64,000 nucleotides of DNA, taken from sequence record HQ630627.1. The stretch is one strand, 5' to 3'. Below the pieces are notes generated by a model. It was not told where the DNA came from. It worked only from the letters and a program-made list of their open reading frames with translations, and ran no database searches. Shown piece by piece: positions 2,517 to 62,962 of the stretch (the first letter of the stretch is position 1; every line of letters starts with the position of its first letter). The position numbers and the translations under genes were made by a program. Origin of the DNA: Pseudomonas phage PhiPA3.

Positions 2517-2552
2517 CATTAAATTTTATTTCAAATCTATATTACGTCTTTG
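2517..2552 (+). promoter_or_regulatory. conserved phage promoter-like box (copy 1, TATATTAC core at 2538-2545)
   Basis: 36-nt sequence cattaaattttatttcaaatctatattacgtctttg is identical to 21269-21304; lies 36 nt upstream of the ATG at 2581. Confidence 0.55.
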
Positions 2553-2580
2553 GAGTGCGCGCCAAAGTTAGGAGTTTATA

Positions 2581-3408
2581 ATGTCGTCTGAAGTCCAACC
2601 GAACATTCTCGGTGCACGATATACCCATTGTTTTATTCGTATTACTGGGGACCTGGAAGGAGCACGTTCTTTCTTCTACATTGAGGACGTTGATGGCTTA
2701 GGTTTACGGAAAACTGAAGAGCAACAAGAAGCTAAAGTCTTCCGCAATGATTTCGTGGATACTCTGTGGCTACCTTTGATTAAGAAACACCTGATGGCCA
2801 GCTACGATCGTACTAAAGGTAATCACATCTGGAGTATTCACGTCGTACCTCTGGTAGTTGTTGAAACTGATACTCGCCATTTCCACCTAGAAGTAAACGC
2901 TGATGAATCGGCTGAGTACGTGACTCCAGAAACCGAGATTGATCCGAACAAACTCGTTGTTGCCGAAACGTTCTCTAATGAACATCTCAATGAACTGACG
3001 GTTGAAGGTGAACTCAAACCACTGGATCCAGAATTGCTGTACAGCAATAGCTCGTTCATTGAAAAGAGTATCCGTAGTGTTGCGCAAGTTCCTCCACCTG
3101 ATGCGTTTGAAACCTACGAAGAACATTCAGCTTATGACGTGATCCAAGCATTGCGCCGAGTAGGCGAGTTGTCTAAAGTACAATCAATCACCGGTTCTCA
3201 TCAGCATACCTTCCACATGGAAACCAATGATGAAGGTAGCTTTGTTATTCACAAAGTCAGTATCCCTGGCATTGTATCGCCGACTGAATGGGGCGACCTA
3301 ATCGAGAAAGCAAAAGCATCCGGTTGGTATAACCTGTCTGCCGAGCAGTATGGTAAAGGTTCCGCGACTTACCAGGTTCTAAATCTCTGGCGAAAGCTGG
3401 ACATCTGA
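2581..3408 (+). CDS. hypothetical protein (275 aa)
   Basis: Long ORF directly after the promoter box; RBS-like ggagtt upstream. Confidence 0.6.
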   Translation: MSSEVQPNILGARYTHCFIRITGDLEGARSFFYIEDVDGLGLRKTEEQQEAKVFRNDFVDTLWLPLIKKHLMASYDRTKGNHIWSIHVVPLVVVETDTRHFHLEVNADESAEYVTPETEIDPNKLVVAETFSNEHLNELTVEGELKPLDPELLYSNSSFIEKSIRSVAQVPPPDAFETYEEHSAYDVIQALRRVGELSKVQSITGSHQHTFHMETNDEGSFVIHKVSIPGIVSPTEWGDLIEKAKASGWYNLSAEQYGKGSATYQVLNLWRKLDI

Positions 3409-3443
3409 CAGATCGTATGTAACTAACCCATTGAGGCATTATA

Positions 3444-3815
3444 ATGGCTTTCCCGACGTACGAATCTCTGCTAGATATCATTCAAGCAGATCAACCTGAT
3501 TACGCTACCATGCTTGCTGCTTTGCAAGCTGACATGGCAGACAATGACAAGGTGCTGGCCGGCTATCGCGTCCTCACCAAAGGCAACAAAGCGAGCCACG
3601 GTTTTGCTTTTCATGTCAAGGGCTGGTTCAGTGCCGCTGACTTGAAACAACTCAAAACCGATGTAGAAGCCGGTGGCGATATGACGATCTTTGAAACTAC
3701 GGCGTTCCAATGTCCAATGCCGCCCAACAGTGCTACGTTACCGCTGGCAGCTGAGGACAGTGTAGGTTATTCAACTACCCGCTGGACTCGTGTGATCCTG
3801 ACTGCCAAAGAGTGA
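3444..3815 (+). CDS. hypothetical protein (123 aa)
   Basis: ORF ends 6 nt before terminator hairpin 3822. Confidence 0.55.
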   Translation: MAFPTYESLLDIIQADQPDYATMLAALQADMADNDKVLAGYRVLTKGNKASHGFAFHVKGWFSAADLKQLKTDVEAGGDMTIFETTAFQCPMPPNSATLPLAAEDSVGYSTTRWTRVILTAKE

Positions 3816-3821
3816 TAAAAC

Positions 3822-3848
3822 GCCTCCCTTCGGGGAGGCCTTTATTTC
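3822..3848 (+). terminator. rho-independent terminator (UUCG tetraloop)
   Basis: gcctccc-ttcg-gggaggc followed by ctttatttc. Confidence 0.7.
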
Positions 3849-3860
3849 GCAAGGAAGATT

Positions 3861-4307
3861 ATGACTTGGGATAAAGAGTTCCTGAACACCATGAGTAAGG
3901 AAGAAGCTTTCCGACTCTTGGATGCTCAAGGTAAGTTCCGCAAGGATTTACAAAAGAGCCGTTATTGGATGCTTGATGAATCCACCGGGGAGTACGGTTG
4001 GTTCTGGGACATTCAAGGCGTTAAACCAAGGATCGTGGCGGCCTGTAACCGTTGGAAGGATGTGTATTTCATCGCCTCTCGTCATTCCTCCGACGTGATG
4101 ACCACACAGCAACTGTTATACGGCGGTATCCACGTTCTCCATGAATACGCAGGAGAAGATCACGATCAAGGTTTCATCGACCAGTTCGATGTATTCCACA
4201 CTCGTGAACAGGCTGCAATCATCGCTAAGGAAAACGGACAACTGTTCCGTGCCGATCGTGATGATCGCCACGTGGGTAATAATCTCTTCTCCGAAGATCT
4301 CTACTAG
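3861..4307 (+). CDS. hypothetical protein (148 aa)
   Basis: ORF with RBS caaggaag upstream. Confidence 0.55.
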   Translation: MTWDKEFLNTMSKEEAFRLLDAQGKFRKDLQKSRYWMLDESTGEYGWFWDIQGVKPRIVAACNRWKDVYFIASRHSSDVMTTQQLLYGGIHVLHEYAGEDHDQGFIDQFDVFHTREQAAIIAKENGQLFRADRDDRHVGNNLFSEDLY

Positions 4308-4471
4308 GTAAATCCATGACCATCAACAACAAACGACCATCTCATTTCCGAGCTGACATTATTTTCCATGGGATCAACCTGATCCTAGAGAAATGTGCAG
4401 ATCTCTGCGATCGGTAGTAAACCCGGTCAGATGTTCGTACACCTGCAAAAGACAAGCGTAACGAGTTCCAA

Positions 4472-4747
4472 GTGATCCATACCAATTCCCCCATCCTCCT
4501 TAACCTACAGGACCAAGGACGAATTGTGCTGGAGTTCGATCGGACGAATCCCGATTGCCCTCTGTTGAAATACCCTGACGATGACATGGTTATCCTGGCC
4601 ATCGTTAAGGCTGCAAAGATTCACGTTGATAAACCGTTCATGTTCCTCGATCAACTCGAAGAAGAATTCGGCTACCGACTCAACTGGAGCTCTGGATTGT
4701 TCGATGAGACCAAGGACATCACCAGTATCGAACTGCGGAAACACTAA
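4472..4747 (+). CDS. hypothetical protein; start uncertain (GTG 4472, or GTG 4526 which has a better RBS)
   Basis: ORF track M is actually GTG; aagga RBS sits before the internal GTG at 4526. Confidence 0.35.
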   Translation: MIHTNSPILLNLQDQGRIVLEFDRTNPDCPLLKYPDDDMVILAIVKAAKIHVDKPFMFLDQLEEEFGYRLNWSSGLFDETKDITSIELRKH

Positions 4748-4778
4748 TTTCGCTGATATCAGCAACTAGGATATTCCA

Positions 4779-5171
4779 ATGCAGATTAACACTCCCGCTG
4801 AAGTTTACAACCTGATCAAATTCGCCAAGGCTAATCCAACTATTACTGAAGAAGACTATTATCTGAAACGGTCATTGATGTTGGCTGTCGAAGAAGCTCT
4901 CAGTAATCCAGCTACAGTGGAGCGCTGTCAGTTCACCAAGGATCATTGGGGGCACTCGGGCATTGGCGTTGAACTAGAGTTCACGATCAGTCGACATTAC
5001 ATTCAACCAGAAGCGGTTGATATGATCAAACAGGCACTGCGTGACAGTGGTTGGCCTTATGTTGACCTCACCCAGATCAAACGGTTTGACATGAATAACG
5101 GTCCATCTAAGTACACTGTCAAGATCACTCTGGCTAATAAGCCGCTGGAGAACAATGGAACAGTATCCTGA
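4779..5171 (+). CDS. hypothetical protein (130 aa)
   Basis: ORF with aggatattccaATG context. Confidence 0.5.
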   Translation: MQINTPAEVYNLIKFAKANPTITEEDYYLKRSLMLAVEEALSNPATVERCQFTKDHWGHSGIGVELEFTISRHYIQPEAVDMIKQALRDSGWPYVDLTQIKRFDMNNGPSKYTVKITLANKPLENNGTVS

Positions 5172-5340
5172 TATCGATGAGTGGAATAATCCCGATTGGG
5201 AAGCTGGTGGTCGGATCCACAACTGGCGGCGTTACGCCGGGCAGGATCTTCGTTTGGTGTGGAATACGTTCTCACTGGACCAGAAACAAGCCATCTACAA
5301 AACACTCGATGAAGTAGCTGGTAACGAACACTGGGATTAA
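5155..5340 (+). CDS. small hypothetical protein (61 aa)
   Basis: ORF overlapping the upstream stop by 17 nt; ggagaacaATG context. Confidence 0.35.
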   Translation: MEQYPDIDEWNNPDWEAGGRIHNWRRYAGQDLRLVWNTFSLDQKQAIYKTLDEVAGNEHWD

Positions 5341-5411
5341 GGAGTCTAGCATGCCAGTCTATGAACAGGTCTATACGCGATTTAGTAGATAGTGCCAAAG
5401 GAGGCAATCTC

Positions 5412-5573
5412 ATGTCGCGTAGTTCCCATTCAAAACATCAGTGGTCCAAAGAATTTTGGTCCCGTCGTCCAATGCGTTATTTCATCTCCTGTAAATGGGC
5501 TAAGGTGAAATGCCACCGGATCGAAAGGATGGAAGAGCGTAAACTCATCCATACCGAAATGCAACAGCTGTAA
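5412..5573 (+). CDS. small basic protein (53 aa)
   Basis: Strong RBS aaggagg 7 nt before ATG 5412; ORF ends 4 nt before terminator 5578. Confidence 0.4.
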   Translation: MSRSSHSKHQWSKEFWSRRPMRYFISCKWAKVKCHRIERMEERKLIHTEMQQL

Positions 5574-5577
5574 AATA

Positions 5578-5606
5578 GTGGGAGGCTTCGGCCTCCCACT
5601 TATTCC
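5578..5606 (+). terminator. rho-independent terminator (UUCG tetraloop)
   Basis: gtgggaggc-ttcg-gcctcccac + ttattcc. Confidence 0.7.
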
Positions 5607-5623
5607 ATCTCAAGGTGAATACA

Positions 5624-6058
5624 ATGGCTATCCCAAGTCCACAACAGGTATACCAACACGATAAACTGTTGGATCGTCAGTACCAACAGGTAGAAGATTA
5701 CCTCGTTGAATTCATGCACGATGATAAAAGAATGAATGAGGTTCTCCACAGGAACACCAGTTATCGTCATGGTCAGGAAGTGGTGTACAGCATCCCAGTT
5801 CCAATGAGCCGCTTCCCTTTCATGGACGAGATCTATGGCGCTCGTTTAGTGAAAGCATTCAAGGTTGCCGGCTGGAACGCCGAGTATAAGGCCGTCGATA
5901 TGGAATCGACAATGCGACTGGCATCGGCAGGCAATGCTGTAATTGAAGGCGACTCCTATTTCCACATCTATCGTCCTAAGGAATCTCTGAGTGAAGAACT
6001 CCTGGTCCGACTCTTCAATGAACACTCACCCATCGTTGTTTGTGCGCCTCATCGATAA
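5624..6058 (+). CDS. hypothetical protein (144 aa)
   Basis: ATG preceded by the conserved aggtgaatacaATG context. Confidence 0.5.
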   Translation: MAIPSPQQVYQHDKLLDRQYQQVEDYLVEFMHDDKRMNEVLHRNTSYRHGQEVVYSIPVPMSRFPFMDEIYGARLVKAFKVAGWNAEYKAVDMESTMRLASAGNAVIEGDSYFHIYRPKESLSEELLVRLFNEHSPIVVCAPHR

Positions 6059-6383
6059 ATCGAAAATTGAGGGTATCCTAACGAGTATTAGAGAGCGGGG
6101 AATCAATGAGGGTGACACGGTATACGCTAGACACCTGATTGGTCGTAAGGCTTGCTGTGAAGCCCCAGCTGCTCTGTTTTGTCGTCGTAACGATGTGCTT
6201 ATCGTTACTGGAATAGAAGTTGACAGTACCGGTAAGATCTGGTACAGGGTACGACATGCTAAAGGAACTGGCGAATGGTCGGTTGGCTTTCGTGATATCA
6301 CGAAGATGAAACCATTTAGCCACAACTACAGCGACGAACAGAAGTACTACGATTCTCAGCGTGAACAAGATTACGTGGGGTAG
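6018..6383 (+). CDS. hypothetical protein (about 121 aa); start uncertain and overlaps the upstream gene
   Basis: ORF 5991-6383; first ATG at 6018. Confidence 0.4.
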   Translation: MNTHPSLFVRLIDKSKIEGILTSIRERGINEGDTVYARHLIGRKACCEAPAALFCRRNDVLIVTGIEVDSTGKIWYRVRHAKGTGEWSVGFRDITKMKPFSHNYSDEQKYYDSQREQDYVG

Positions 6384-6386
6384 TAA

Positions 6387-6941
6387 ATGAAAGAGAACCG
6401 CGATAAACATCAAGTAGTCATGGCCACTGAGGTGTTTAACCGTCTATTGGCTTTTGCCGAAGATGGCGCAAAGATGGCTGGGGTTAGCTTGGCTGATGAC
6501 AAGCGACATATCCGTAAGTTCAATCTTCACTTACATCAACAACGTATCCAAGAAGTTGCCGAAGATGATCGGCAACGACGAGAATGGTACAAGCGCGCCA
6601 AGGAAATCGTTAATAAACACCGGGGTGAGCAGATTGTTTACCATGACGGTAAAGGTCACTACCGTTATGTCAAGGTCATCGGTTTAGGTAAACCCAAACA
6701 CATGCTTCGGGTAGGTCACAATGTAGTCGACCAATCGGTGATCGATCAGCAGAGTACGCCCCATAATTACAAGCATGACTGCTGGGTTGCTGAAGTACCA
6801 GTGTGGCAGCTGGGTGGTAGCATACCGGATGATTACAAAATGATGTTCTCTGGCCCGTACACCGGTTGGTGGGTTTCCCCCGAGCGGAAAGCCGTACTGG
6901 AATCGTGCCAGTCGCTGGTAGTGAGCCTCTGGTATGATTAA
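6387..6941 (+). CDS. hypothetical protein, paralog family A copy 1
   Basis: 184 aa; aligns with 9194-9787 (HQVVMATEVFNRLLAFA vs QQVILSLEMYNTLLAMA; RKFN; NKH.G). Confidence 0.55.
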   Translation: MKENRDKHQVVMATEVFNRLLAFAEDGAKMAGVSLADDKRHIRKFNLHLHQQRIQEVAEDDRQRREWYKRAKEIVNKHRGEQIVYHDGKGHYRYVKVIGLGKPKHMLRVGHNVVDQSVIDQQSTPHNYKHDCWVAEVPVWQLGGSIPDDYKMMFSGPYTGWWVSPERKAVLESCQSLVVSLWYD

Positions 6942-7194
6942 CCCAGCACATCATCCGCTGGCTCCTGTGACCAGTCATAAGCTCTTCGACATTTTCAGGA
7001 AATGTGCGGAAACGTCAAAAGGTAGATGGCGTAATCTACAGGAGTCTAAAGGGTATATTAGCCTCACCATACCCCACCAGGACTACAATGCGTATTTCTG
7101 GGAACTCATTAGTCTGTATAAGTGTCGGATAGTTCATACACATTCAGTTAATGAACAATTCATTGATATCGTGATCTCTAAAGAATCGGAGTGA
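6934..7194 (+). CDS. hypothetical protein (86 aa)
   Basis: ORF overlapping the upstream stop. Confidence 0.4.
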   Translation: MINPAHHPLAPVTSHKLFDIFRKCAETSKGRWRNLQESKGYISLTIPHQDYNAYFWELISLYKCRIVHTHSVNEQFIDIVISKESE

Positions 7195-7197
7195 ACC

Positions 7198-7851
7198 ATG
7201 GACCGTAAGGGTTACGTTGCAATAGTCGAGTCACGCACTGTTCCCGAAACTGTACTGGAGCTGATGATTCGACTGGGACGTACTCACACGGACCATGGTT
7301 GGGCTGTTAGTTCTGGTGACGCCTACGACTCCGATCGTGCAGGTTGGTACGGCGCTGTGCAGTCGAAACACTACGATACAGTGGGTTCACGGATCTACCT
7401 GGCCAGTGGTACTGGTCGGAACTGGTATCGTATCCGTGACCATAAGAACTTCATGGATGCAACTCAGTTTACCGATACGTGGGCTGATGCTCGTGCAATG
7501 GCTATAACGGCGAGGGGTTCTTTCGGAGGACTGAATGAATTTTGTCAGGCGTTGCACACCCGTAACGTTTACCAAATTCATGGACATACCCTAGATGAAC
7601 TGGTAGAGCGCCTGTTCTATTACGCTAAACCCATAGGGAAACGTGAGAATGAACGAGTTGACGGTGGCACTAATACCGCTTTGCGTTTGAGCGTAATGGC
7701 GGGTGTACCCATCCGAAAGAATCTCTACTTCGAAGATGATCGTCAGTGGTGCCTTGATTGGCTAGCTGAAAATGAACTGGACTACCCTTATCAGGAGATT
7801 GATTGGAATGCAATCCATAACCCACGCGACCCAAGAGTCCTCGATTTCTGA
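7198..7851 (+). CDS. hypothetical protein with possible SLOG/LOG-like Rossmann motifs (217 aa)
   Basis: YLASGTGRN (GxGxxG-like) and ARGSFGGLNEF (GGxGT.EE-like) motifs; weak assignment. Confidence 0.5.
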   Translation: MDRKGYVAIVESRTVPETVLELMIRLGRTHTDHGWAVSSGDAYDSDRAGWYGAVQSKHYDTVGSRIYLASGTGRNWYRIRDHKNFMDATQFTDTWADARAMAITARGSFGGLNEFCQALHTRNVYQIHGHTLDELVERLFYYAKPIGKRENERVDGGTNTALRLSVMAGVPIRKNLYFEDDRQWCLDWLAENELDYPYQEIDWNAIHNPRDPRVLDF

Positions 7852-7896
7852 ACGTGGTATTTTATCACAAGAAGTTCTGGATGGAGTGAAGACGCT

Positions 7897-8256
7897 GTGA
7901 AGGACTCTAAGCTAAAAGATCCTACCCCTGTGCTGGATTTCATTGCCAGTATCCATGCCCCACTGAAAATTAAAAACGGATTGGTAGCTGACAATATCGA
8001 ACACCGCGTGAGAGAATCGATGCGGAGCATGCTCTGCGATATAGGTGCCCGTAACGAGAAATTCGCGCACCACATCATCGATCGGATTCGGTTGGAGGAA
8101 GCAGATCGGGATGAACGTATCCAGTTCGACCGTAATATTCGATCCAAGTCCATGGATGAGTTGATGGTGTGGGCTAACGTTCAGCTGTGCATCATTGGGG
8201 GTGCACCTGCAACACTCGCTATTGATAAAGCCTGTAGGAGGTTGATGTGGGCTTGA
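7897..8256 (+). CDS. hypothetical protein (119 aa)
   Basis: ORF. Confidence 0.45.
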   Translation: MKDSKLKDPTPVLDFIASIHAPLKIKNGLVADNIEHRVRESMRSMLCDIGARNEKFAHHIIDRIRLEEADRDERIQFDRNIRSKSMDELMVWANVQLCIIGGAPATLAIDKACRRLMWA

Positions 8257-8597
8257 ACGTTTCTCGCAATAAACTGTTCCGGATGGTGAGCATTATCCGT
8301 CGGCAAGTTCCGGTAGCTGCCCATCCGGTTCAGGAATACGAGGCTACCATTGAAACGCAGATGTTGGAGCGTATCTCTGGTAAACCACGTTGGATGAAAG
8401 CTCAGACCATTAAAATGTCAGATGCTTACGCCAAGCGGCTAATGGATAAGCTGACATATTTACCTCCACCGGGTTACGATCTGGCGAAGATACAGGAATA
8501 TAAGCCAGTGGAAATCGATCCATGCTTTAAACGGTTTAATACGGATATTTCCGTTCGAATTGAACCTCACTACAACGCAATCCTTAAAGGTGTGTAA
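8247..8597 (+). CDS. hypothetical protein (116 aa), GTG start
   Basis: GTG at 8247 overlaps the upstream stop; aggaggttgatGTG RBS. Confidence 0.45.
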   Translation: MGLNVSRNKLFRMVSIIRRQVPVAAHPVQEYEATIETQMLERISGKPRWMKAQTIKMSDAYAKRLMDKLTYLPPPGYDLAKIQEYKPVEIDPCFKRFNTDISVRIEPHYNAILKGV

Positions 8598-9184
8598 TGA
8601 ACAAGTCTAAGATTCCGGTAGTGGTTCCTGATTTCGCATTGGATGCTCCGAAGCCGGCGGCATGGCATAGTCCAGTGGTATTCCGTCAAGGTCAGTCCAT
8701 GGGCAAATCAACCGATGGTGATCAAGTTTTTAATGACTACTTAAACCACGTTTATATGCCAGCGTACCATGATCTTATTAATGGCCGCCTTAACGGTGGT
8801 CTTAAACATGGTGAGCTCTTCGTACTACAACATGGCTTGAATGTCGGCTCCGGTCGCCATAACCCCAACAAAACGAACCTCTACGCAGAACGTCTTATGG
8901 CCGAGCGTTTTGCACAGCAGAACAAACTGCGGGAACTGGAAGGCAGTCCTATTCCGGAGGTTCGTAAGAACCCGGTCACCGCTGCTGTACAGATGGTCGT
9001 TCAAGGTCGCTTGTCTGCACTGCGTGACTGGTTTGAAACCAAGCACGAAATGTGGATCACTTGGATCAATGGCTTGGTAGCTTCGGGTCTGGTACATCGT
9101 ACCAACGAAGGTAACAGTATCTACTGGTACGACATTGAAGGTAATATGTCAGAACTGCTCGATCCCAACAAAGTTTATTGCTAA
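8597..9184 (+). CDS. hypothetical protein, paralog family B copy 1 (195 aa)
   Basis: ATGA overlap with upstream; aligns with 9797-10263 (KIPVVVPDFALDAPKP vs RIPVVIPDYVLDAPKP; VVQGRL; DPNK.YC). Confidence 0.55.
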   Translation: MNKSKIPVVVPDFALDAPKPAAWHSPVVFRQGQSMGKSTDGDQVFNDYLNHVYMPAYHDLINGRLNGGLKHGELFVLQHGLNVGSGRHNPNKTNLYAERLMAERFAQQNKLRELEGSPIPEVRKNPVTAAVQMVVQGRLSALRDWFETKHEMWITWINGLVASGLVHRTNEGNSIYWYDIEGNMSELLDPNKVYC

Positions 9185-9193
9185 GGACTCAAC

Positions 9194-9787
9194 ATGGAAC
9201 GCAACCACAACGAACAACAAGTAATCCTTTCCCTAGAGATGTACAATACGCTGCTAGCGATGGCTGCCGACAGCCCCCGCTATACAACCAAACGGATTGA
9301 GAAGCATGTCCGTAAGTTCAACCCGTATCTGCAACTTCCACATCAGCTCAGGGTTAAGGAGTTCGAAGCTTATCGCTCAAAGGAGATCCGTGAAGCACGA
9401 GCGTTCTTCAATAAGCATGTCGGCCAAACTGTTTATGCTCTAGTGAATATGGGCTCTTCCCGTGTGGAAGGCGAGAACGTATTCTGTCCCGTGGTGGTGA
9501 AACGACTGGACAAAGACCGTCGGTTCATCCGAGTCGCTGAAGTAAGTGATATTACGTTGGGTCTAAAGTGCACTGTTCGCGTATCGGCTAGTTCGCTTGC
9601 GCTGGAAATCCCTGATGACTTCATTGACGGAGTTGGAGCTTATCGTCGGTACAGGATTCGTGAGAACGGTCCGTTTGATATCCGTAAGAAAGAAGCCGAA
9701 GCGCAAGAAAAACGCCTATTGGATTCGCAAACGCACGTTCAATCCGAGATGTGTGATGAAGACATCCGCGTCGAAGTACGTGACTAG
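9194..9787 (+). CDS. hypothetical protein, paralog family A copy 2 (197 aa)
   Basis: Paralog of 6387-6941. Confidence 0.55.
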   Translation: MERNHNEQQVILSLEMYNTLLAMAADSPRYTTKRIEKHVRKFNPYLQLPHQLRVKEFEAYRSKEIREARAFFNKHVGQTVYALVNMGSSRVEGENVFCPVVVKRLDKDRRFIRVAEVSDITLGLKCTVRVSASSLALEIPDDFIDGVGAYRRYRIRENGPFDIRKKEAEAQEKRLLDSQTHVQSEMCDEDIRVEVRD

Positions 9788-9796
9788 GAGACTAAC

Positions 9797-10263
9797 ATGG
9801 CTAAATCGCGTATCCCTGTAGTAATTCCCGATTACGTGCTGGATGCACCGAAGCCCATGGCGACTGAACCGTTCATGGGTGCTTATGTAACTGCTTATCG
9901 TGGTTCGGCCATGGGGAAATCGGAACACCTCAGTCACCTCAAGGATGGCTTACATCCAGGTGAATTGGCGAAGATGAATGATTATCTAGAATACCTGGGG
10001 AGACTCCGCGATCTGGGAGGCACTGAATATCCACAGGTTAATCGTAATCCACTGGCACACGCGGTTAAGCTGGTAGTACAGGGGCGCTTGGATGATCTAC
10101 GTAACTGGTTTGATGTCAAAGAGAAAATGTGGTGGTCCTGGATCAATTGTACAGAATATTCCGGCGTGCGCCATCGTTTGATTTCATGGTTTACGTATAC
10201 CTGAACATGGAAGCCAACGGCGATGACTTGATGGATCCAAACAAGATTTACTGTGGTAGATAA
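9797..10263 (+). pseudogene. family B copy 2, frame-disrupted: frame 0 stops at 10204 and the conserved C-terminus (..DPNKIYC) continues in the -1 frame to 10263
   Basis: 9797-10204 aligns with 8597-9184 up to SGVRHR; ..YVYLNMEANGDDLMDPNKIYCGR is encoded in the -1 frame (10183-10263) and matches the ..YWYDIEGNMSELLDPNKVYC end of copy 1. Confidence 0.45.
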
Positions 10264-10294
10264 TCAGATAGGCTAAAACAAGGAAAGCTCTTAA

Positions 10295-10873
10295 ATGTCT
10301 GTACTCTCTGATAAAACTATTGCCCGCCTGTGCAATGGTGACCTCCCGATGATCGAACCGTTCTTTGCGGAATCGATCAAGCACGCTGAGGATGGTCACC
10401 GCATTGCTTCGTACGGTGTGAGCAGTTACGGTTATGACCTTCGCGCTGCTGGGGAATTCAAACTCTTCAAAGGTGTCCCGGAAGGGCAGGCTGTAGACTA
10501 CAAGAACATCACCGAAGACATGTTCGAAACCGTAGTTGGCGATAAGATCATCATCCCACCGCACGGCTTTATCCTGACTCGTTCTGTGGAGTACGTCCGT
10601 ATTCCGCGTAACGTACTGGCACTGTGCATCGGTAAGTCGACTATCGCCCGTGTGGGCATCAACTGTCTGTGCACTCCGATCGAACCGGAATGGGAAGGCC
10701 ACATCACCTTCGAATTCCACAACACTCTCGATCAACCGAACACCTTCTATGCCAACGAAGGTGTACTGCAACTGGTCTTCATCGAAGGCGATGAGCCGTG
10801 CATTACTTCGTATGCCGATCGTGGCGGTAAGTACCAGGGTCAGGGCGCCAACATCGTTCTACCGAAAGTGTAA
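10295..10873 (+). CDS. dcd: dCTP deaminase (dUTPase superfamily; possibly bifunctional dCTP deaminase/dUTPase)
   Basis: MSVLSDKTIARL N-terminus, GKSTIARVGI, PIEPEWEGHITFEFHN and YQGQ motifs typical of Dcd; RBS aaggaaag. Confidence 0.8.
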   Translation: MSVLSDKTIARLCNGDLPMIEPFFAESIKHAEDGHRIASYGVSSYGYDLRAAGEFKLFKGVPEGQAVDYKNITEDMFETVVGDKIIIPPHGFILTRSVEYVRIPRNVLALCIGKSTIARVGINCLCTPIEPEWEGHITFEFHNTLDQPNTFYANEGVLQLVFIEGDEPCITSYADRGGKYQGQGANIVLPKV

Positions 10874-10874
10874 A

Positions 10875-10900
10875 AACTTTTAGATCTATATCACGCCTTT
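10875..10900 (+). promoter_or_regulatory. variant promoter-like box (ttagatc-TATATCAC-g)
   Basis: One mismatch from the TATATTAC core; upstream ttagatc matches copy 7; 41 nt before ATG 10935. Confidence 0.35.
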
Positions 10901-10934
10901 GAATTGATTCCAAATCAACAAAAGGAAAATATAA

Positions 10935-11417
10935 ATGGCACGTGTACAAATCAACTCTTTCAAAGGTCTTGGGGAATTGATGGGCAAACCGGTTGAAGTT
11001 AAACCGGAACCGGTTAAGAAAAAGAAACCGAAGCCTGTCAAACGTGAAGATCTGAAGAAGGTTGAGGCGCCGAAGCCTGCTGAATCCGCTAAAGCAGAAG
11101 AGCCTCCTAAAAAGGCTCCCAAACGAAAGCGGGTGCCGCCGCCTCCGGAGAAGCGGGTTGTATATAAAGCCCCCACGACCATCAAGTTTGAAAAGTCCGC
11201 ATCGGAGCGGGCACTCCCAGATACGCGTGGTGTGTCGGAGCTCTGTAAGTTCAAACAAGAACTTTCGAAACACAGTTTGGAACTATTTGGTGGTGTGGTA
11301 CGACGTGTTAAAGACTGGAGTGATAGTCTGTTCCCTATCGAAGAGACCAAGTTCCAGAAAGAACTGATTGCTCAGTTTCAGTTGATCTACAACACGAAGT
11401 TCGTGCAAAAGGTGTGA
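10935..11417 (+). CDS. lysine/proline-rich basic protein (160 aa), low-complexity KP(E/K)P repeats
   Basis: KPEPVKKKKPKPVKREDLKKVEAPKPAESAKAEEPPKKAPKRKRVPPPPEKR; conserved aggaaaatataaATG context. Confidence 0.5.
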   Translation: MARVQINSFKGLGELMGKPVEVKPEPVKKKKPKPVKREDLKKVEAPKPAESAKAEEPPKKAPKRKRVPPPPEKRVVYKAPTTIKFEKSASERALPDTRGVSELCKFKQELSKHSLELFGGVVRRVKDWSDSLFPIEETKFQKELIAQFQLIYNTKFVQKV

Positions 11418-11426
11418 CGGCATATT

Positions 11427-11460
11427 GGGGTTCCTTCGGGAACCCCTCTATGACTATTTT
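11427..11460 (+). terminator. terminator-like hairpin (UUCG tetraloop), weak U-tract
   Basis: ggggttcc-ttcg-ggaacccc. Confidence 0.5.
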
Positions 11461-11475
11461 CTTTAGGAGAATCCA

Positions 11476-14023
<2,548 letters not shown>

Positions 14024-14038
14024 GACTTTGGGGATACC

Positions 14039-14293
14039 ATGCTTAATATCATCCGCCGTTTCTTCTTTCAACGTAAGTACAACCGCCTGATGCGTGAACA
14101 GTGGGACGAACGTGAAGCGTTCACCTCTAAAGTTCTCGATCAAGGTCACATGATCATCGCACCGGGCAAAGTGATACCCATTTCCGGTGGTAAGCGTACA
14201 GAAGTAACTGTCGATCTGGACGTCGAATACAAGACCATCCTATGGGAGCAGAAGCGTGCATTAGAGGCGCTGGTGGCGACCAAAAAGTTCTAA
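14039..14293 (+). CDS. hypothetical protein (84 aa)
   Basis: ORF with ggggataccATG context. Confidence 0.45.
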   Translation: MLNIIRRFFFQRKYNRLMREQWDEREAFTSKVLDQGHMIIAPGKVIPISGGKRTEVTVDLDVEYKTILWEQKRALEALVATKKF

Positions 14294-14310
14294 CAAAAAA
14301 GGATTGGCCC

Positions 14311-14529
14311 GTGAAAACCCTCCTCAGGCGTGCGCTACTCATTATCAGGCATGTACTGTGGTTGATCGGATTCAGTTTTCGGGTAGGTAGTGATCGCATG
14401 GGAGACGTACGTCGGAAATTCAGCGCTGATCGCGGTGGGTACATCCGTCCACTCCATAAAGATCGCAACATGGAACTGAGTCTGCATCAGCTTCACTTTG
14501 AATCTGATTGGCAGTTGGCAAAATATTAA
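14311..14529 (+). CDS. hypothetical protein (72 aa), GTG start; uncertain
   Basis: aagga RBS before the GTG; ORF ends before terminator 14535. Confidence 0.3.
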   Translation: MKTLLRRALLIIRHVLWLIGFSFRVGSDRMGDVRRKFSADRGGYIRPLHKDRNMELSLHQLHFESDWQLAKY

Positions 14530-14534
14530 GGACT

Positions 14535-14560
14535 AGCCTCTCCTCCGGGAGAGGCTTTAT
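14535..14560 (+). terminator. rho-independent terminator
   Basis: agcctctcc-tccg-ggagaggct + ttat. Confidence 0.6.
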
Positions 14561-14579
14561 CCCGTTAGGAGAATACAAG

Positions 14580-15677
14580 ATGCAAATGCTTAAAGATATC
14601 TACAACCATTTTCGTACGAAACGTGTTCCCACCATGACCACGTTCCAAACCTTATTCAAGAACGGTGCAACGGTCATCCGTATTATCGATGGGGAGAAAA
14701 AGTTCTGGGTGTACGGTACAGGTGAGTTGATTGGCGACACCTACGAACTGTACTACTATTACATGAACGAGGAATACGATCGCGTAAAAAATGTAGTTAT
14801 CACTCCGTTGGATACACGAGCTTTCTTTGACTTGGATCTGGTAAGTGATTGGCCCAATGCCAAGGTTCGGGTACAGCATAATAGAGACGCCCAGGATGAA
14901 TTCATCCTAAAAACTATCTGTGAACGTAGTTTCGAGAACTGGCTCGTTAGTTCTGCCTACGTGAAGGCGTGGAAGACTTGGTTGGAAAAACCGTTGTATG
15001 AGCGTATACCTCGTGGCCATGGGGTTAAAGTGGGTAGTATCAGTAATCGTGACCTGTTTGCTATGTCCAACGTGGCTGATGGCGCAGACTACATTACCCT
15101 GTACGACTGTAAGGGTGAAATGTTCCAGATGCCGTATGCCATACTGGACTCGGACTTCTGGCATCATCACGAGGATAGCTTGGGCTATCCAGAATACATT
15201 CCATTGACCGTACCGCCCAAGCGACAAGCTTTGCATCACGATGATCCTCGTCGTTGGGTTGTTATCGAGCGTGTAACGGATCATGGACTGGATTACGCTG
15301 TACGTGGGCGCTACGCCGGTGAAGCGCTCCTGAAACCTACGGAAATCTTCAACATCACCATCGAACTAGATGGTCCTAACCTTGCTGGCCGTGATATCAA
15401 CCTCCAAGACATGTTGTTATTGGCTATTCTGCGTGATCCGTCCATGCAAGAGTTGGATCAGTTCCGAGTGTATCTAAACAACATTCGGATCAAGCATGCT
15501 GGGTTTGATGCTATCTTCTCTGCGTGGACCACCCGCCAGAGAGATAACAGTGAATGGCGTAATACTCATCCGTACATCTTCATCAAAGATAATGGTCGAC
15601 CTCAGGTTATCCATGATGAACGGACAGTGTATGTACGGTACGTTAATGCTGAAAGCGTGGAGACTGAACTTGATTAA
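14580..15677 (+). CDS. hypothetical protein (365 aa)
   Basis: taggagaatacaagATG after the terminator; start moved from the listed 14508. Confidence 0.6.
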   Translation: MQMLKDIYNHFRTKRVPTMTTFQTLFKNGATVIRIIDGEKKFWVYGTGELIGDTYELYYYYMNEEYDRVKNVVITPLDTRAFFDLDLVSDWPNAKVRVQHNRDAQDEFILKTICERSFENWLVSSAYVKAWKTWLEKPLYERIPRGHGVKVGSISNRDLFAMSNVADGADYITLYDCKGEMFQMPYAILDSDFWHHHEDSLGYPEYIPLTVPPKRQALHHDDPRRWVVIERVTDHGLDYAVRGRYAGEALLKPTEIFNITIELDGPNLAGRDINLQDMLLLAILRDPSMQELDQFRVYLNNIRIKHAGFDAIFSAWTTRQRDNSEWRNTHPYIFIKDNGRPQVIHDERTVYVRYVNAESVETELD

Positions 15678-16134
15678 ACGGCTATTGAAGAAACTCTTCA
15701 GGCCCGTTGATCCGTATGCTCACTACGAGAAGGAACTAAAGTTCCTCGCATCCTGTGATCCACATGGCCTGATTTTCAATCGTTGGATTGTCAAAGTTCC
15801 GTTGTGTGCTCTCCCCTACATGACACGAGTGGGGAAGATCTTCGGACCTGCTGTAGTGACATCCATCATCGCTAAGGTACATAACAGTCCGTTCCGTAAG
15901 GAGTTCTTTACGGACCTGGCCAACTGGTTAGATAGCCCAACGTCCATTGAAGTCTTCAACAGTGGGCATTACACTGATCGAGCTAAAGCCATCCATTTCG
16001 CTAGTTTCTTAGGCGGATACTGGAATGATTCTACTGACCAGTATTTATGGTACAGTCAATTGCGTTTTGGTTTGAGTTCGATGAGTGCGGCTAACGCTAA
16101 GATCCGTGTTGTTACGGAAGATCGTTTCGCATAA
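15646..16134 (+). CDS. hypothetical protein (about 162 aa); start uncertain
   Basis: ORF 15496-16134; internal ATG 15646 overlaps the upstream end. Confidence 0.4.
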   Translation: MLKAWRLNLIKRLLKKLFRPVDPYAHYEKELKFLASCDPHGLIFNRWIVKVPLCALPYMTRVGKIFGPAVVTSIIAKVHNSPFRKEFFTDLANWLDSPTSIEVFNSGHYTDRAKAIHFASFLGGYWNDSTDQYLWYSQLRFGLSSMSAANAKIRVVTEDRFA

Positions 16135-16140
16135 GACCTA

Positions 16141-16170
16141 CGCCCTTGACTTAGGTTGAGGGCGTTATGT
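16141..16170 (+). terminator. weak hairpin
   Basis: cgccct..agggcg with a 12-nt loop. Confidence 0.25.
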
Positions 16171-16186
16171 CGCCTAGGAGAATCCA

Positions 16187-16603
16187 ATGAACAAAAATAT
16201 AGCCATGGCGGTGATGCTCCCCACCAGCCCAAATTCAGGAAACTACGAAAGTATTCGTCGTTCCAATGCTGAACCTATGGATCTGGAGGAGTATTACACG
16301 CGCCTTCATGAAACTCCGGAAACCAGTTCTCTACCAGAGAGGTTTGCTGAGGTGATCAGACAGCGGTATTCGACTCGCCGTGGTAAACGTAAGTATTACC
16401 GTAAAGAAGACCTCAATGACTTTGCTATTTGGTTGGCAGACTTCCGTTATTTCCTAATTGAGGCATGTGACGGTAATGAAGATCTTCGCATTATCCGGCA
16501 ACAATTCAAGGATCGTATGAAGACCAGTGAGAGGCGTAACTCTTTCTTCAAAGTCACCCGGATGCAGCAATACTTTAAGGAAGCAAAAGGGGACATTCGA
16601 TGA
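16187..16603 (+). CDS. hypothetical protein (138 aa)
   Basis: ctaggagaatccaATG. Confidence 0.5.
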   Translation: MNKNIAMAVMLPTSPNSGNYESIRRSNAEPMDLEEYYTRLHETPETSSLPERFAEVIRQRYSTRRGKRKYYRKEDLNDFAIWLADFRYFLIEACDGNEDLRIIRQQFKDRMKTSERRNSFFKVTRMQQYFKEAKGDIR

Positions 16604-17031
16604 ACAGTACTCAAAAGGTACTCATCATTGATGGCGGTTCACTAACCACACAAATGACAGCGGCGCTGATCGCGACCTGCAAGAGAGAGTGTATCGAGAT
16701 AGAGGAGTACAAACCCTGTGAAAAGGGTTATCTACCTTATCCCGATTTAAGCGGTCTTAACCGCAACCTTATACCGTACTTTGAAACCGAAGAGTCGGGT
16801 GAGTACGACCGTGTGCCTACGTCCACTTACGAGAAGAGACAATTCAAGAAGTCGGACAAACAGCAAGAAGCAGCTGCATTGTGGCTAAAGACAGCCTATG
16901 CTTTAGACCACGCTAAAACAAAAGAAGAACGACACCACATTGTGAAGGGATACAAAAGTCAAAGACGTATTTTGCGTCTACAACACGCTGGGGTGATACT
17001 CACTCGTCTCCACGAGTGTACTTTGAAATAG
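16600..17031 (+). CDS. hypothetical protein (143 aa)
   Basis: ATGA overlap. Confidence 0.5.
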   Translation: MNSTQKVLIIDGGSLTTQMTAALIATCKRECIEIEEYKPCEKGYLPYPDLSGLNRNLIPYFETEESGEYDRVPTSTYEKRQFKKSDKQQEAAALWLKTAYALDHAKTKEERHHIVKGYKSQRRILRLQHAGVILTRLHECTLK

Positions 17032-17395: not shown

Positions 17396-17403
17396 GGCAT
17401 AAT

Positions 17404-21228: not shown

Positions 21229-21267
21229 GGGAGCCTTCGGGCTCCCTGCTTTTCCTTTTCTTTTTTG
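21229..21267 (+). terminator. rho-independent terminator (UUCG) with a long U-tract
   Basis: gggagcc-ttcg-ggctccc + tgcttttccttttcttttttg. Confidence 0.7.
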
Positions 21268-21268
21268 C

Positions 21269-21304
21269 CATTAAATTTTATTTCAAATCTATATTACGTC
21301 TTTG
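21269..21304 (+). promoter_or_regulatory. conserved promoter-like box (copy 2, identical to copy 1)
   Basis: cattaaattttatttcaaatctatattacgtctttg; 39 nt upstream of ATG 21336. Confidence 0.55.
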
Positions 21305-35510: not shown

Positions 35511-35519
35511 AATCAATGT

Positions 35520-35545
35520 AAAGAATTTCAAGGCTATATTACAAC
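35520..35545 (+). promoter_or_regulatory. conserved promoter-like box (copy 3, tttcaaggc-TATATTAC-a)
   Basis: Follows a terminator; 45 nt before ATG 35587. Confidence 0.5.
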
Positions 35546-35586
35546 AATGAATTTAACCCATCTAAAATCCAATAGGGAAATCAAAT

Positions 35587-38285: not shown

Positions 38286-38295
38286 TTTCTTTTTT

Positions 38296-38328
38296 AGATT
38301 TAAAGCAATTAAAAGGCTATATTACAAA
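38296..38328 (+). promoter_or_regulatory. conserved promoter-like box (copy 4, tttaaag..aaaaggc-TATATTAC-a)
   Basis: 36 nt upstream of ATG 38361. Confidence 0.5.
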
Positions 38329-38360
38329 CTCGAATATCCATTAGGAAAACGGAGTTTGGT

Positions 38361-39124: not shown

Positions 39125-39165
39125 GCCCTCCCTTCGGGGAGGGCCGTGCCTACTAAATTTTTTTT
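39125..39165 (+). terminator. rho-independent terminator (UUCG)
   Basis: gccctccc-ttcg-gggagggc + U-rich tail. Confidence 0.7.
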
Positions 39166-39183
39166 CACATCTATATTACGCTA
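39152..39183 (+). promoter_or_regulatory. conserved promoter-like box (copy 5, tttcacatc-TATATTAC-g)
   Basis: 27 nt upstream of ATG 39206. Confidence 0.5.
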
Positions 39184-39205
39184 ATGGCAAACAAAGGAAA
39201 CTGTA

Positions 39206-45295: not shown

Positions 45296-45320
45296 GGGCA
45301 TACTCCTCTGACTTTCATAT

Positions 45321-45352
45321 ATTTAAAGCATTTAAAACCCTATATTACAAAT
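45321..45352 (+). promoter_or_regulatory. conserved promoter-like box (copy 6, tttaaag..aaaccc-TATATTAC-a)
   Basis: 44 nt upstream of ATG 45392. Confidence 0.5.
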
Positions 45353-45391
45353 GTGATCTAACCCCTTCAAATACCAATAGGAATCTTCAAA

Positions 45392-49720: not shown

Positions 49721-49745
49721 GCCCTCCTACGGGAGGGCTTATGCC
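49721..49745 (+). terminator. rho-independent terminator
   Basis: gccctcc-tacg-ggagggc + ttatgcc. Confidence 0.65.
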
Positions 49746-49754
49746 GCAATACAA

Positions 49755-49782
49755 TTATTGTTAGATCTACATTACGTCTTTG
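49755..49782 (+). promoter_or_regulatory. conserved promoter-like box (copy 7, ttagatc-TACATTAC-gtctttg)
   Basis: 32 nt upstream of the small-ORF ATG 49808. Confidence 0.5.
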
Positions 49783-60521: not shown

Positions 60522-60587
60522 TGGAATTGGACCCTTGTCAGAAATGACCGGGGTCCATCCATTTATAATCGATAACAGGAGACTCCA

Positions 60588-61373
60588 ATGAATCGTCGTA
60601 CCGAATACCGTTTCTCTCTGTCATACGACCGTGAGCTGGTCGCTGCTAATCCACTGGGTTTCGTGGTTGAAGAATTCCTTGGAGGCTGGTTCAAAGAACT
60701 CGAAGAAAAGATCAATCGAGATTATGTAGCTAGCTATAATGTGCCTTTCCATGGTAGCTGGAACTACTTTGAGTTGGAGCAATTCCAAAACAATGCTTTC
60801 TTCAACCAGTACCACGAAGTAATGCAGTCCCTCGAAGCATTGGAAAAACAACTGGGCGAACGCGCCGGATTGCGCATCCAGATCACAAAACCTGAGTGTG
60901 CTCTTACCCATGTACTGATTGGTCAGGATAAGATTTTGTTGTCTCCTGATTGTGGTCACGTGGGTATCCGTGTTCCAGAAGGGACAGTGGTGGCTAGCGA
61001 AAGATGGGGTGACCATAGAGATCGTAACGTAGATTCCATTGCTGTGTTTGGTGAGCATTCCAAGATGCGCTACGTTGCCAAGCAGGTGCGCTACGCATTG
61101 AAGCAAAAAGGTGTAACCACGATCGCTAACAGTTCGATGGCGCGATTCCTACATGACCTCTTCCACCCCACCTACGAAAACAACCAAAAGTACAAGTTCA
61201 ACATGATCATGTCTGACGTGTATGTATTGGTGTTATTCAAGGATGGTGGTGCTGAGATCTATGGCAAGGATCTGGGAGAGATCTTCGAAAACCATAACCT
61301 GATATTCCTAGAACGGGAATACACCATTTGTGGACAACATTTCCCGATGTTGACTGGAGACCGTTTGGTATAA
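60588..61373 (+). CDS. hypothetical protein (261 aa)
   Basis: acaggagactccaATG. Confidence 0.55.
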   Translation: MNRRTEYRFSLSYDRELVAANPLGFVVEEFLGGWFKELEEKINRDYVASYNVPFHGSWNYFELEQFQNNAFFNQYHEVMQSLEALEKQLGERAGLRIQITKPECALTHVLIGQDKILLSPDCGHVGIRVPEGTVVASERWGDHRDRNVDSIAVFGEHSKMRYVAKQVRYALKQKGVTTIANSSMARFLHDLFHPTYENNQKYKFNMIMSDVYVLVLFKDGGAEIYGKDLGEIFENHNLIFLEREYTICGQHFPMLTGDRLV

Positions 61374-61375
61374 TC

Positions 61376-62902
61376 ATGGAAACATTGATACATTACTACG
61401 ACCTGTTCATGACAATCAGTCAGAAGAACATGGTCATGGGGGGTGTAATTGGAGCGGGGATTGGTGCTTTCTTCTGGAGTGTCCTTCGGGGCATTCCGAG
61501 GAAGACCATCAACGCGATTAAGTCGCAGTTGATATCCACGCTCCATATCACCAACGTGGGGAATCAGTTTAACGAGAAAAACTTCGATGCTTTCATGGAG
61601 TGGTATCAGAAGCAACCGTTGGCTGGGTATAACCGAAGACTCAGTGCGAACACAGTTGACGACTGGGTATCGTCCGATGAGAGAAAACCAACGATTGGGG
61701 TTGGCTTCGGTTTACACTTCTTCATGTACCGTGGGCGACTGTTTTGGTTTAATAAAGTTCGGATCGACGGTAACCAATCTGCCGTAGATAAGCAGGAGAT
61801 TCTGATCCATGGGTTGACACGTGATAAACAGCTCCTGGTAGACATGGTGGAAGAGTACCGTGTTAAGCGAAAGAAGAATGGCCTGACGATCTGTCATTGG
61901 GACGGCAATCGCTGGGGCAACGAGATTGAAGTCACCAAACGTGATCTATCAACCGTTGTTCTGAACAATGAGATCAAAGCTGGACTGATGCGTCGAATGG
62001 AGGAATTCTATTCTGGACGCGCGTGGTATGATGAACGTGGGCTACCCTACAAGTTCACGGTAGTTTTCCACGGGCCACCGGGTACAGGTAAATCGTCTTT
62101 GGCTAAAGCATTCGCTTCTCACTACAATAAAAATGTCAGCACGATGTCTTTGGCAGCCATGTCGAACGATACCCTGCGGCGAGCTTTCCTGACGCTGCCT
62201 AAAGGGAACATCCTACTCATCGAGGACTTTGACGATACACCTGCTGTCAAAGATCGCTTGTCTTCTGATCCCGTTAAATTGGAAAACGAGATTAAGCGAA
62301 TGGAACGTGAATATAAGCTGGAGTATATCGGCCATCTGTTTCCGGACATGCAGGAGTATGAGAACAGTGTCCAGCGCTACGTAGCTATCGATAAAGTTGC
62401 CATTATGGCAGACCTTAGCCACGAGCCTGCCGGTCTCAGTGTCAGCATGGGTGGTGTTCGTGATGAGATTGAAAGCCAGGGCTACCAGATGGGCCCCGTC
62501 AGTATTGATGACTACGCAATTTGTCAACGGTACGCTGAGCTTTTGGTTAAGCGCGATCAGGGTGTACAGTTTGATACGAGTTCAGGCTTGACTTTATCGG
62601 CGCTGCTCAATGCGCTCGATGGGATCGTTCCTTTGGATGAAACGATGGTTATCATGACTACTAACCATCCAGAAAACCTGGACGCTGCATTGACTCGTAA
62701 GGGTCGTGTGGATTACATGGTCGAGATCCCGTTGTTCCAAGATGCGGAGGTACGTGAGTACATCAATCTCATGTTCCCGGATTACGAGGTCCCTACGGAT
62801 ATTCGTTTCCGGCCCATTGCAGGTTGCGATGTCATGGCGGCCTTCAGTGAAAACCGGACCTGTCCAGAATCGATGATTCGCGCCCTACCTAAAGTAGCAT
62901 AA
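61376..62902 (+). CDS. BCS1-like AAA+ ATPase with an N-terminal transmembrane anchor (508 aa)
   Basis: N-terminal TM MVMGGVIGAGIGAFFWSVL; Walker A HGPPGTGKSS; BCS1-type Walker B ILLIEDFDD; sensor/Arg-finger TTNHPENLDAALTRKGRVD. Start moved from the listed 61328. Confidence 0.75.
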   Translation: METLIHYYDLFMTISQKNMVMGGVIGAGIGAFFWSVLRGIPRKTINAIKSQLISTLHITNVGNQFNEKNFDAFMEWYQKQPLAGYNRRLSANTVDDWVSSDERKPTIGVGFGLHFFMYRGRLFWFNKVRIDGNQSAVDKQEILIHGLTRDKQLLVDMVEEYRVKRKKNGLTICHWDGNRWGNEIEVTKRDLSTVVLNNEIKAGLMRRMEEFYSGRAWYDERGLPYKFTVVFHGPPGTGKSSLAKAFASHYNKNVSTMSLAAMSNDTLRRAFLTLPKGNILLIEDFDDTPAVKDRLSSDPVKLENEIKRMEREYKLEYIGHLFPDMQEYENSVQRYVAIDKVAIMADLSHEPAGLSVSMGGVRDEIESQGYQMGPVSIDDYAICQRYAELLVKRDQGVQFDTSSGLTLSALLNALDGIVPLDETMVIMTTNHPENLDAALTRKGRVDYMVEIPLFQDAEVREYINLMFPDYEVPTDIRFRPIAGCDVMAAFSENRTCPESMIRALPKVA

Positions 62903-62905
62903 ACA

Positions 62906-62934
62906 GAGAGGCCTTCGGGCCTCTCTTTATATTC
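62906..62934 (+). terminator. rho-independent terminator (UUCG)
   Basis: gagaggcc-ttcg-ggcctctc + tttatattc. Confidence 0.7.
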
Positions 62935-62962
62935 AAATCCATTTAAAGCCTACATTACAAGC
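62932..62962 (+). promoter_or_regulatory. conserved promoter-like box (copy 8, tttaaagcc-TACATTAC-a)
   Basis: 28 nt upstream of ATG 62986. Confidence 0.5.

Follow-up and report, generated by a model that had tools for sequence, protein, structure and literature searches.

The window analysed here, a whole 64,000-nucleotide (nt) stretch of DNA from Pseudomonas phage PhiPA3 (sequence record HQ630627.1), carries virion-protein genes on its minus strand at 477-2449 and, from position 2581 on, a long series of small plus-strand genes. This plus-strand arm includes the genes for dCTP deaminase, an NAD-dependent DNA ligase, thymidylate synthase, RNA ligase and a BCS1-like AAA ATPase. Spaced along the window are nine copies of a conserved box, termed P1 to P9, which are very probably the early promoters of a phiKZ-like (Chimalliviridae-type), nucleus-forming jumbo phage. 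All nine boxes are intergenic and lie on the plus strand at the head of plus-strand gene runs, and none is located inside a gene accepted as real. In each case, the box is followed by a Shine-Dalgarno (SD) sequence and an ATG, which stands 20-38 nt from a conserved G within the box; counted from the end of the core, the distance to the ATG is 27-45 nt, in line with the 28-45 nt given in the original prediction, a reading of the bare DNA letters in which these boxes were first noticed. The minus-strand virion-protein genes have no box, and none is present anywhere on the minus strand of the window. These placements refer to a plus-strand gene model, used after a greedy longest-open-reading-frame version was dropped because it chose antisense shadow open reading frames (ORFs). 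A crude model of the longest plus-strand ORFs placed ORFs across two cores (2537 and 21289); both ORFs were judged spurious, and the second would cross two terminator hairpins.

At the centre of the box is an AT-rich element of approximately 10 nt near -10, which reads C-TAyATTAC in eight boxes and CTATATCAC in one. The pattern CTAYATTAC occurs nine times in the 64-kb window, compared with 0.62 expected, and all nine copies are on the plus strand. Eight of these copies belong to boxes (2537, 21289, 35534, 38317, 39171, 45340, 49767 and 62950), whereas the one-mismatch core CTATATCAC, previously placed near 10875, lies at 10886-10894. The remaining exact copy, at 15089, was rejected as a chance match: it lies within a coding region without any flanking element, scores -26 bits against the matrix described below, and was absent from the earlier list of boxes. 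The core is followed by five variable bases and then by T-G. The G is invariant, standing exactly 7 nt past TAC in all nine boxes, and the T that precedes it is present in eight. When this G is numbered +1, C falls at -15, the core at -14 to -7, the TTT of the TTTmAA element at -23 to -21, and TTAAA at approximately -33 to -29. An A/T-rich element lies approximately 15 nt upstream of TTTmAA. The information profile of the boxes has T/A-rich conservation near -20 and -30, as does that of 49 sites from three genomes, which agrees with PMC8244752 and PMC11512511. In the formula first proposed for the box, TTTmAA and C should be separated by two bases rather than one, and the invariant G had gone unnoted.

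The boxes are sharply distinct from the rest of the window. A weight matrix built from the nine boxes and covering the core with 20 nt before it and 8 nt after it (-35 to +2) scores them at 35-49 bits, or at 18-44 bits when each is left out in turn, while the best non-box position on either strand reaches 3.5 bits. All nine boxes were confirmed at the places first reported. Moreover, the box is not equally common inside coding regions or free of positional bias: no position off the boxes scores above 3.5 bits, and nine of nine boxes are on the plus strand ahead of an SD and ATG. Two of the boxes share a perfect repeat. The exact 36-mer reported to start at both 2517 and 21269 is indeed found twice (2517-2552 and 21269-21304; 0 expected by chance), and alignment extends the identity to 37 nt (2516-2552 and 21268-21304), with unrelated sequence on either side. 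The repeat ends exactly on the predicted +1 G. That it stops there, ahead of unrelated genes, fits an element that acts as DNA and not as RNA. The possibility that the two 37-mers mark duplicated genes was rejected, as the proteins encoded downstream of them are unrelated.

Relatives of the window were recognised through their proteins. A megablast search of positions 1-20000 against a phage collection returned no nucleotide-level match, and searches of viral contigs with the back-translated AAA ATPase and with an exact promoter 24-mer likewise returned no match. Exact-protein look-ups with the RNA ligase and the thymidylate synthase also retrieved no record. The closest phages by protein are the ~300-kb Pseudomonas phages PS119XW, PA1C and HPP-Temi (Pawinskivirus), with 56% identity in the ligase and 75-77% in the RNA ligase; in the AAA ATPase, identity to PA7 and other Phikzvirus phages is 54%. 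Gene order in the window is colinear with that of the PS119XW early-gene arm (approximately 214-282 kb), in which orthologous proteins are 22-76% identical. A gene set is also common to the window and a region of 201phi2-1 annotated as similar to phiKZ gp201-gp272, and genes are also common to the window and PA7/phiKZ. PS119XW encodes the tubulin PhuZ and a nuclear shell protein, both hallmarks of nucleus-forming jumbo phages. Additionally, it has five RNA-polymerase beta-family genes, namely gp055, gp069, gp070 and a virion-type pair (1453 and 550 amino acids [aa]) located by the head protease.

The motif defined in the window is conserved in these relatives. In the complete PS119XW genome, the window matrix identifies 35 sites of at least 12 bits, all 35 on the plus strand. 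Among the genes that they precede are the nuclear-shell gene gp054, gp065 and the non-virion RNA polymerase beta gene gp069. The presence of the motif ahead of nuclear-shell and non-virion polymerase beta genes, which are classic early genes, fits early expression. The stricter pattern CTAYATTAC-N6-G occurs at 21 PS119XW sites, again all on the plus strand. By hand comparison with the RefSeq gene tables, these sites lie approximately 35-105 nt before annotated plus-strand starts, with the exception of L006:17684, from which the next annotated gene is approximately 490 nt away. Eight of the nine window boxes have a PS119XW counterpart at the equivalent position between orthologous genes, such as the junction past the virion paralogues, the interval that separates dCTP deaminase from its downstream neighbour, and the places past the gp264, gp320 and gp331 orthologues. 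Within these pairs, ungapped identity is 68% from -37 to +1, compared with 35-36% in the flanks. The matrix also finds sites of 30-40 bits in a PA7 region, where L001:6432 is an almost base-for-base match to the box at 45340 that continues into the first predicted transcript bases, and further sites ahead of annotated genes in 201phi2-1. In viral contigs searched for exact TTTNAANNCTAYATTACNNNNNTG, approximately two dozen of the 80 single matches listed are on contigs longer than 200 kb; among the listed contigs checked, distant homologues of window proteins were found at ~50% G+C, none of them close (46% protein identity or less). These matches hint, suggestively only, at a wide distribution of the motif among uncultured jumbo phages.

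Some matches in relatives bear on gene annotation. The annotated starts of PA7 gp097 (6409-6843) and PS119XW gp300 (6412-6840) are upstream of predicted promoters that fall within the coding sequences (L001:6432 and L003:6442, respectively), and the protein similarity of gp300 to the window starts only at approximately L003:6490. Both starts were probably annotated too far upstream. In 201phi2-1, a 15-bit match at L127:20668 lies inside the first piece of a split NAD-dependent DNA ligase (gp332/gp333), and it may be due to chance or tied to whatever splits the ligase gene.

Individually, the boxes differ in subtype, in upstream hairpin and in the distance to the served ATG. Five belong to a form termed subtype I and four to a form termed subtype II. 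A G+C-rich hairpin lies within approximately 60 nt upstream of six boxes, with a TTCG loop in five and a TACG loop in one. P1 (subtype I, 2515..2552, plus strand) has the core CTATATTAC at 2537-2545, a predicted start G at 2552 and an ATG at 2581. It occupies the gap where the minus-strand virion genes and the plus-strand early arm diverge, and its PS119XW counterpart by position is L002:10826. The virion genes on the other side of this gap, at 477-1466 and 1478-2449, are adjacent paralogues of a virion-protein family (phrog_1062 / phrog_3589), of which PS119XW has four in a row (gp232-gp235). P2 (subtype I, 10864..10901, plus strand), which contains the variant core, lies directly 3' of the dCTP deaminase gene, with its predicted start G at 10901 and the ATG at 10935; the counterpart, L002:18821, is between the PS119XW dCTP deaminase gene (gp250) and gp251. 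P3 (subtype I, 21267..21304, plus strand; core 21289-21297) is the box that repeats P1. It has a predicted start G at 21304, an ATG at 21336 and an upstream hairpin at 21229-21246, and its counterpart is L002:26410, past the gp264 orthologue. The same hairpin and another at 21098-21115 enclose approximately 110 nt without a convincing gene.

P4 (subtype II, 35512..35549, plus strand) has its core at 35534-35542, its predicted start G at 35549, its ATG at 35587 and a hairpin upstream at 35483-35498; its likely counterpart is L003:3614. P5 (subtype II, 38295..38332, plus strand; core 38317-38325), with a hairpin at 38258-38275, a predicted start G at 38332 and an ATG at 38361, corresponds to L003:6442. 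P6 (subtype I, 39149..39186, plus strand; core 39171-39179) follows a hairpin at 39125-39144 and precedes a 54-aa ORF whose ATG is at 39206. Its predicted start G is at 39186, and 30 of 38 bases are identical in its counterpart, L003:7813. P7 (subtype II, 45318..45355, plus strand; core 45340-45348; predicted start G 45355; ATG 45392) has two counterparts in PS119XW, L003:14804 and 14854 (35 of 38 bases identical), and one in PA7 (L001:6432). Close to P7 but pointing away from it, a minus-strand gene of 58 aa (45125-45301; phrog_16759, E = 2e-29) lies inside the plus-strand arm and is served by no early box; the hairpin at its end (45094-45115) could terminate transcription in both directions. 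P8 (subtype I, 49745..49782, plus strand) carries the core CTACATTAC at 49767-49775, a hairpin at 49721-49738 and a predicted start G at 49782. Its ATG at 49808 opens a 35-aa ORF, past which the next gene begins at 49912, and its counterpart is L003:19574, past the gp331 orthologue. P9 (subtype II, 62928..62965, plus strand), directly 3' of the BCS1-like AAA ATPase gene, has the same core CTACATTAC at 62950-62958, a hairpin at 62905-62926, a predicted start G at 62965 and an ATG at 62986.

Additional features of the arm lie away from the boxes. Further strong hairpin terminators are found at 3822, 17404, 19386, 21098, 27118, 31837, 44173, 47759, 56663 and 58667. These ten have mainly TTCG loops, and several have near-identical stems, e.g. 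GCCTCCCTTCGGGGAGGC. Most stand directly before an SD and ATG, and none stands before an early box, an arrangement that suggests either attenuation and read-through inside early units or unrecognised middle promoters. The thymidylate synthase gene (23847-25277) encodes 476 aa, and its Pfam domain is found in two stretches, which implies an insertion of well over 100 aa relative to the 266-position Pfam model. The gene has the same length in PS119XW, and the protein is 457 aa in 201phi2-1.

Early promoters of related phages have been described in some detail. Ahead of their early operons, all jumbo phages that encode RNA polymerases have a conserved AT-rich motif of approximately 10 nt, centred near -10 (reviewed in PMC7598289). 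According to the same review, transcript profiles bear this motif out as the early consensus, which must be recognised by the virion polymerase (PMC7598289). The predicted early promoters in Table 2 of PMC7058600 are TATATTAC for phiKZ, TTAWTAVAA_HYWTTTRARR_BTATATTACDWHDGTG for 201phi2-1, WTTTYAAACCTACATTATY for EL and a close variant for OBP. In phiKZ, differential RNA sequencing (dRNA-seq) mapped 32 early promoters; these have an extended -10 element as well as T-rich sequence upstream of -19, and their 5' untranslated regions (UTRs) are mainly 31-40 nt long (PMC8244752). In 201phi2-1, Cappable-seq showed early promoters to be conserved at -10, -20 and -30, as in phiKZ (PMC11512511). The early consensus of AR9 is AAATATATATTAT-(6N)-G, i.e. 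…TATATTAT-N6-G, in which the G is the mapped start, and early AR9 transcripts accumulate despite chloramphenicol (PMC5312081). The start base predicted for the window boxes was set from the AR9 spacing together with published text descriptions. With its underscore taken as one free base, the 201phi2-1 consensus matches four window boxes at two mismatches each, compared with 0.01 expected; the EL consensus as printed has no window match within three mismatches.

Read in this light, the box would be an AT-rich, three-part element of approximately 37 bp on the coding strand, composed of a TTAAA-like part near -30, TTTcAA/TTTAAA near -20 and C-TAyATTAC from -15 to -7. Its reader would be a multisubunit RNA polymerase carried inside the virion and delivered together with the phage DNA, as homology with phiKZ, 201phi2-1 and AR9 suggests. 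The conserved G would be the first transcribed base, and transcription of the small early and nucleotide-metabolism genes could begin with neither the host polymerase nor newly made proteins. The upstream G+C-rich hairpins would end or attenuate the preceding unit. Under this scheme, the window would be divided into approximately nine early transcription units, each starting 20-38 nt before its SD and ATG. A phage-encoded polymerase, one of the readers suggested at the outset, is the most likely. The middle or late class that had been suggested with it very probably does not hold, as the motif matches the early motif of phiKZ-like and other RNA-polymerase-encoding jumbo phages (PMC7058600; PMC7598289; PMC5312081; PMC8244752).

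Several observations weigh against the early-promoter assignment. For P9 (62950), neither PS119XW nor PA7 has a matching site in the corresponding position. The window itself has no RNA polymerase, nuclear-shell or PhuZ gene, its largest ORF being the 705-aa ligase; because no RNA polymerase gene is present, a virion polymerase in this phage is inferred from synteny with relatives. Likewise, the start site, the timing and the polymerase are attributed to this phage by homology. Even in the relatives, the early motif was assigned to the virion polymerase from timing and drug-insensitivity, and an in vitro reconstitution of initiation by this enzyme was not found in the literature searched. Finally, the -10-like TATATT hexamer could in principle bind the host polymerase weakly.

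If the boxes were middle or late promoters instead, their reader would be either the non-virion RNA polymerase of the phage or a host polymerase that the phage has modified. Such a role would suit the served genes for DNA ligase, thymidylate synthase and RNA ligase, genes of a kind that are 'middle' in some phages. However, the published phiKZ motifs differ from the box. The middle motif is AT-rich at -24, and is given as TACT near -22 after an A-rich run; the late motif is TATG at the start site (PMC7598289; PMC8244752). Both are unlike the early motif (PMC7598289), which the box matches base for base. The virion-protein genes at 477-2449 on the minus strand have no box, and the PS119XW copies of the motif stand before the nuclear-shell gene and the non-virion polymerase beta gene, the second of which must be expressed before the non-virion enzyme exists. 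A middle or late class is very unlikely. It is also highly improbable that the box is a non-promoter repeat, whether an RNA processing or stability signal at the heads of cistron blocks, an operator or a small mobile repeat between genes. A signal at the RNA level would also be consistent with the strand bias and the location outside genes, and the perfect 37-nt duplicate could mean that a cassette was copied. Nevertheless, in phiKZ, 201phi2-1 and AR9, the homologous motif is located approximately 10 bp upstream of primary (5'-triphosphate) transcript ends, which were mapped by dRNA-seq, Cappable-seq, 5' rapid amplification of cDNA ends or primer extension (including PMC8244752, PMC11512511 and PMC5312081). 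As conservation stops at the predicted +1, the RNA would leave out the greater part of the element. Inverted or direct terminal repeats of the mobile-element kind were not found at the boxes, and the window has no Rfam match and no tRNA genes.

Recognition by the host polymerase was weighed in the same way. TATATT agrees with TATAAT at five of six positions and the upstream sequence is AT-rich like UP elements, features that strong sigma-70 promoters would share. Yet no -35-like hexamer stands at a spacing of 16-18 nt at any of the nine sites, and no sigma-70-type match (TTGACA- and TATAAT-like hexamers 16-18 nt apart) overlaps any core, in agreement with what had been noticed from the outset. 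The conserved C at -15, AC at -8/-7 and TG at -1/+1 do not belong to the sigma-70 pattern, and phiKZ-type infection is reported to be independent of the host polymerase and unaffected by rifampicin (PMC13282480). Sigma-70 promoters are thus an extremely unlikely identity for the boxes. Across the window, sigma-70-type matches number 52, compared with approximately 87 expected (13, 17, 18 and 4 per segment vs 28.1, 27.7, 26.6 and 5.1 in shuffled sequence). This depletion may reflect selection against initiation by the host polymerase, or merely coding constraints. The box is also unlike the promoters of T7 and the late promoters of T4, in agreement with the original prediction. A T7/SP6-type promoter of approximately 18-23 bp resembling TAATACGACTCACTATAG has no match in the window within three mismatches, and the T4-type late -10 sequence TATAAATA has a single match, at 50056, which is no more than chance and falls at no box.

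As early promoters, the nine boxes provide a clean promoter map, with predicted starts, for a section of a jumbo phage genome to which the collection searched offers no nucleotide-level match. A probable virion-polymerase promoter that is AT-rich has been kept nearly unchanged in a genome of 48% G+C and across at least four lineages. The motif is furthermore a useful marker when early regions are annotated in nucleus-forming phages or mis-called starts are corrected in relatives.

The two forms of the box were compared across genomes. Subtype I reads ...aTTAAAaaaTaTtTCA(A/G)AT-C-TATATTAC-(G/C/A)...tTG, and subtype II reads TATTTAAAgcaTTTAAAss-C-TATATTAC-AAatGTGAt; both are also present in PS119XW, PA7 and 201phi2-1. 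The two forms differ jointly at approximately -20 and at -6/-5. Among 49 sites of at least 16 bits from the window, PS119XW and PA7, AA stands at -6/-5 in 20 of the 25 sites that lack AT at -17/-16 but in only 2 of the 24 that have it (Fisher p = 4e-7, in a test that treats sites as independent, whereas sites of one genome are not and may share ancestry). From these sequences, it is conceivable, though doubtful, that the early promoters form two discrete, co-varying subtypes with functional meaning. Subtype is kept in only six of eight window/PS119XW positional pairs, which is not significant. If the split is functional and not a by-product of duplication, the subtypes might represent two recognition modes, strengths or temporal sub-classes (immediate-early vs delayed-early) of the virion RNA polymerase. 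No description of a two-subtype split was found in the literature searched. This structure is the only possible addition to knowledge made here, and it is a lead rather than a result.

In all other respects, the boxes belong to a promoter family that has already been described, which the original prediction did not recognise, and they involve no new mechanism. One member compared is that of AR9, which shares the TATATTA core and the six-base spacing to a G (the mapped start in AR9); initiation in AR9 requires no new protein synthesis, which points to the virion polymerase, and the same is predicted for the window. However, AR9 is a Bacillus jumbo phage that is not nucleus-forming and has uracil-containing DNA, and its core ends in TAT and is accompanied by other upstream elements. 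The promoters of 201phi2-1 (Serwervirus), EL and OBP resemble the window boxes in their TTTRARR-N-B-TATATTAC-DWHDGTG layout and in their location ahead of hypothetical early genes, and EL also has TACATTA- cores. They differ in that subtype-I sites of 201phi2-1 have T, not C, before TATAT, while the core of EL and OBP ends in TAT, not TAC. In PA7, the C before TATATTAC, invariant in the window, is sometimes G or A, and the region compared has a G+C content of 35%, as opposed to 48% for the genome here.

PS119XW and PA1C (Pawinskivirus), for which no description of early promoters was found in the literature searched, have the same three-part motif in both subtypes despite the lack of any nucleotide-level match to the window. 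Certain promoters are confined to one or the other of the phages compared, e.g. 62950 in the window and 244533 in PS119XW. In phiKZ, with 28-32 mapped early promoters, the core TATATTAC is identical. The phiKZ starts are mapped, whereas those of the window are predicted, and two of the nine window boxes use TACATTAC. Both phages nevertheless have a T-rich element upstream of -19 and conservation near -30, and in both the promoters are one-directional, lie ahead of small early genes and give 5' UTRs, here predicted, of approximately 30-40 nt.

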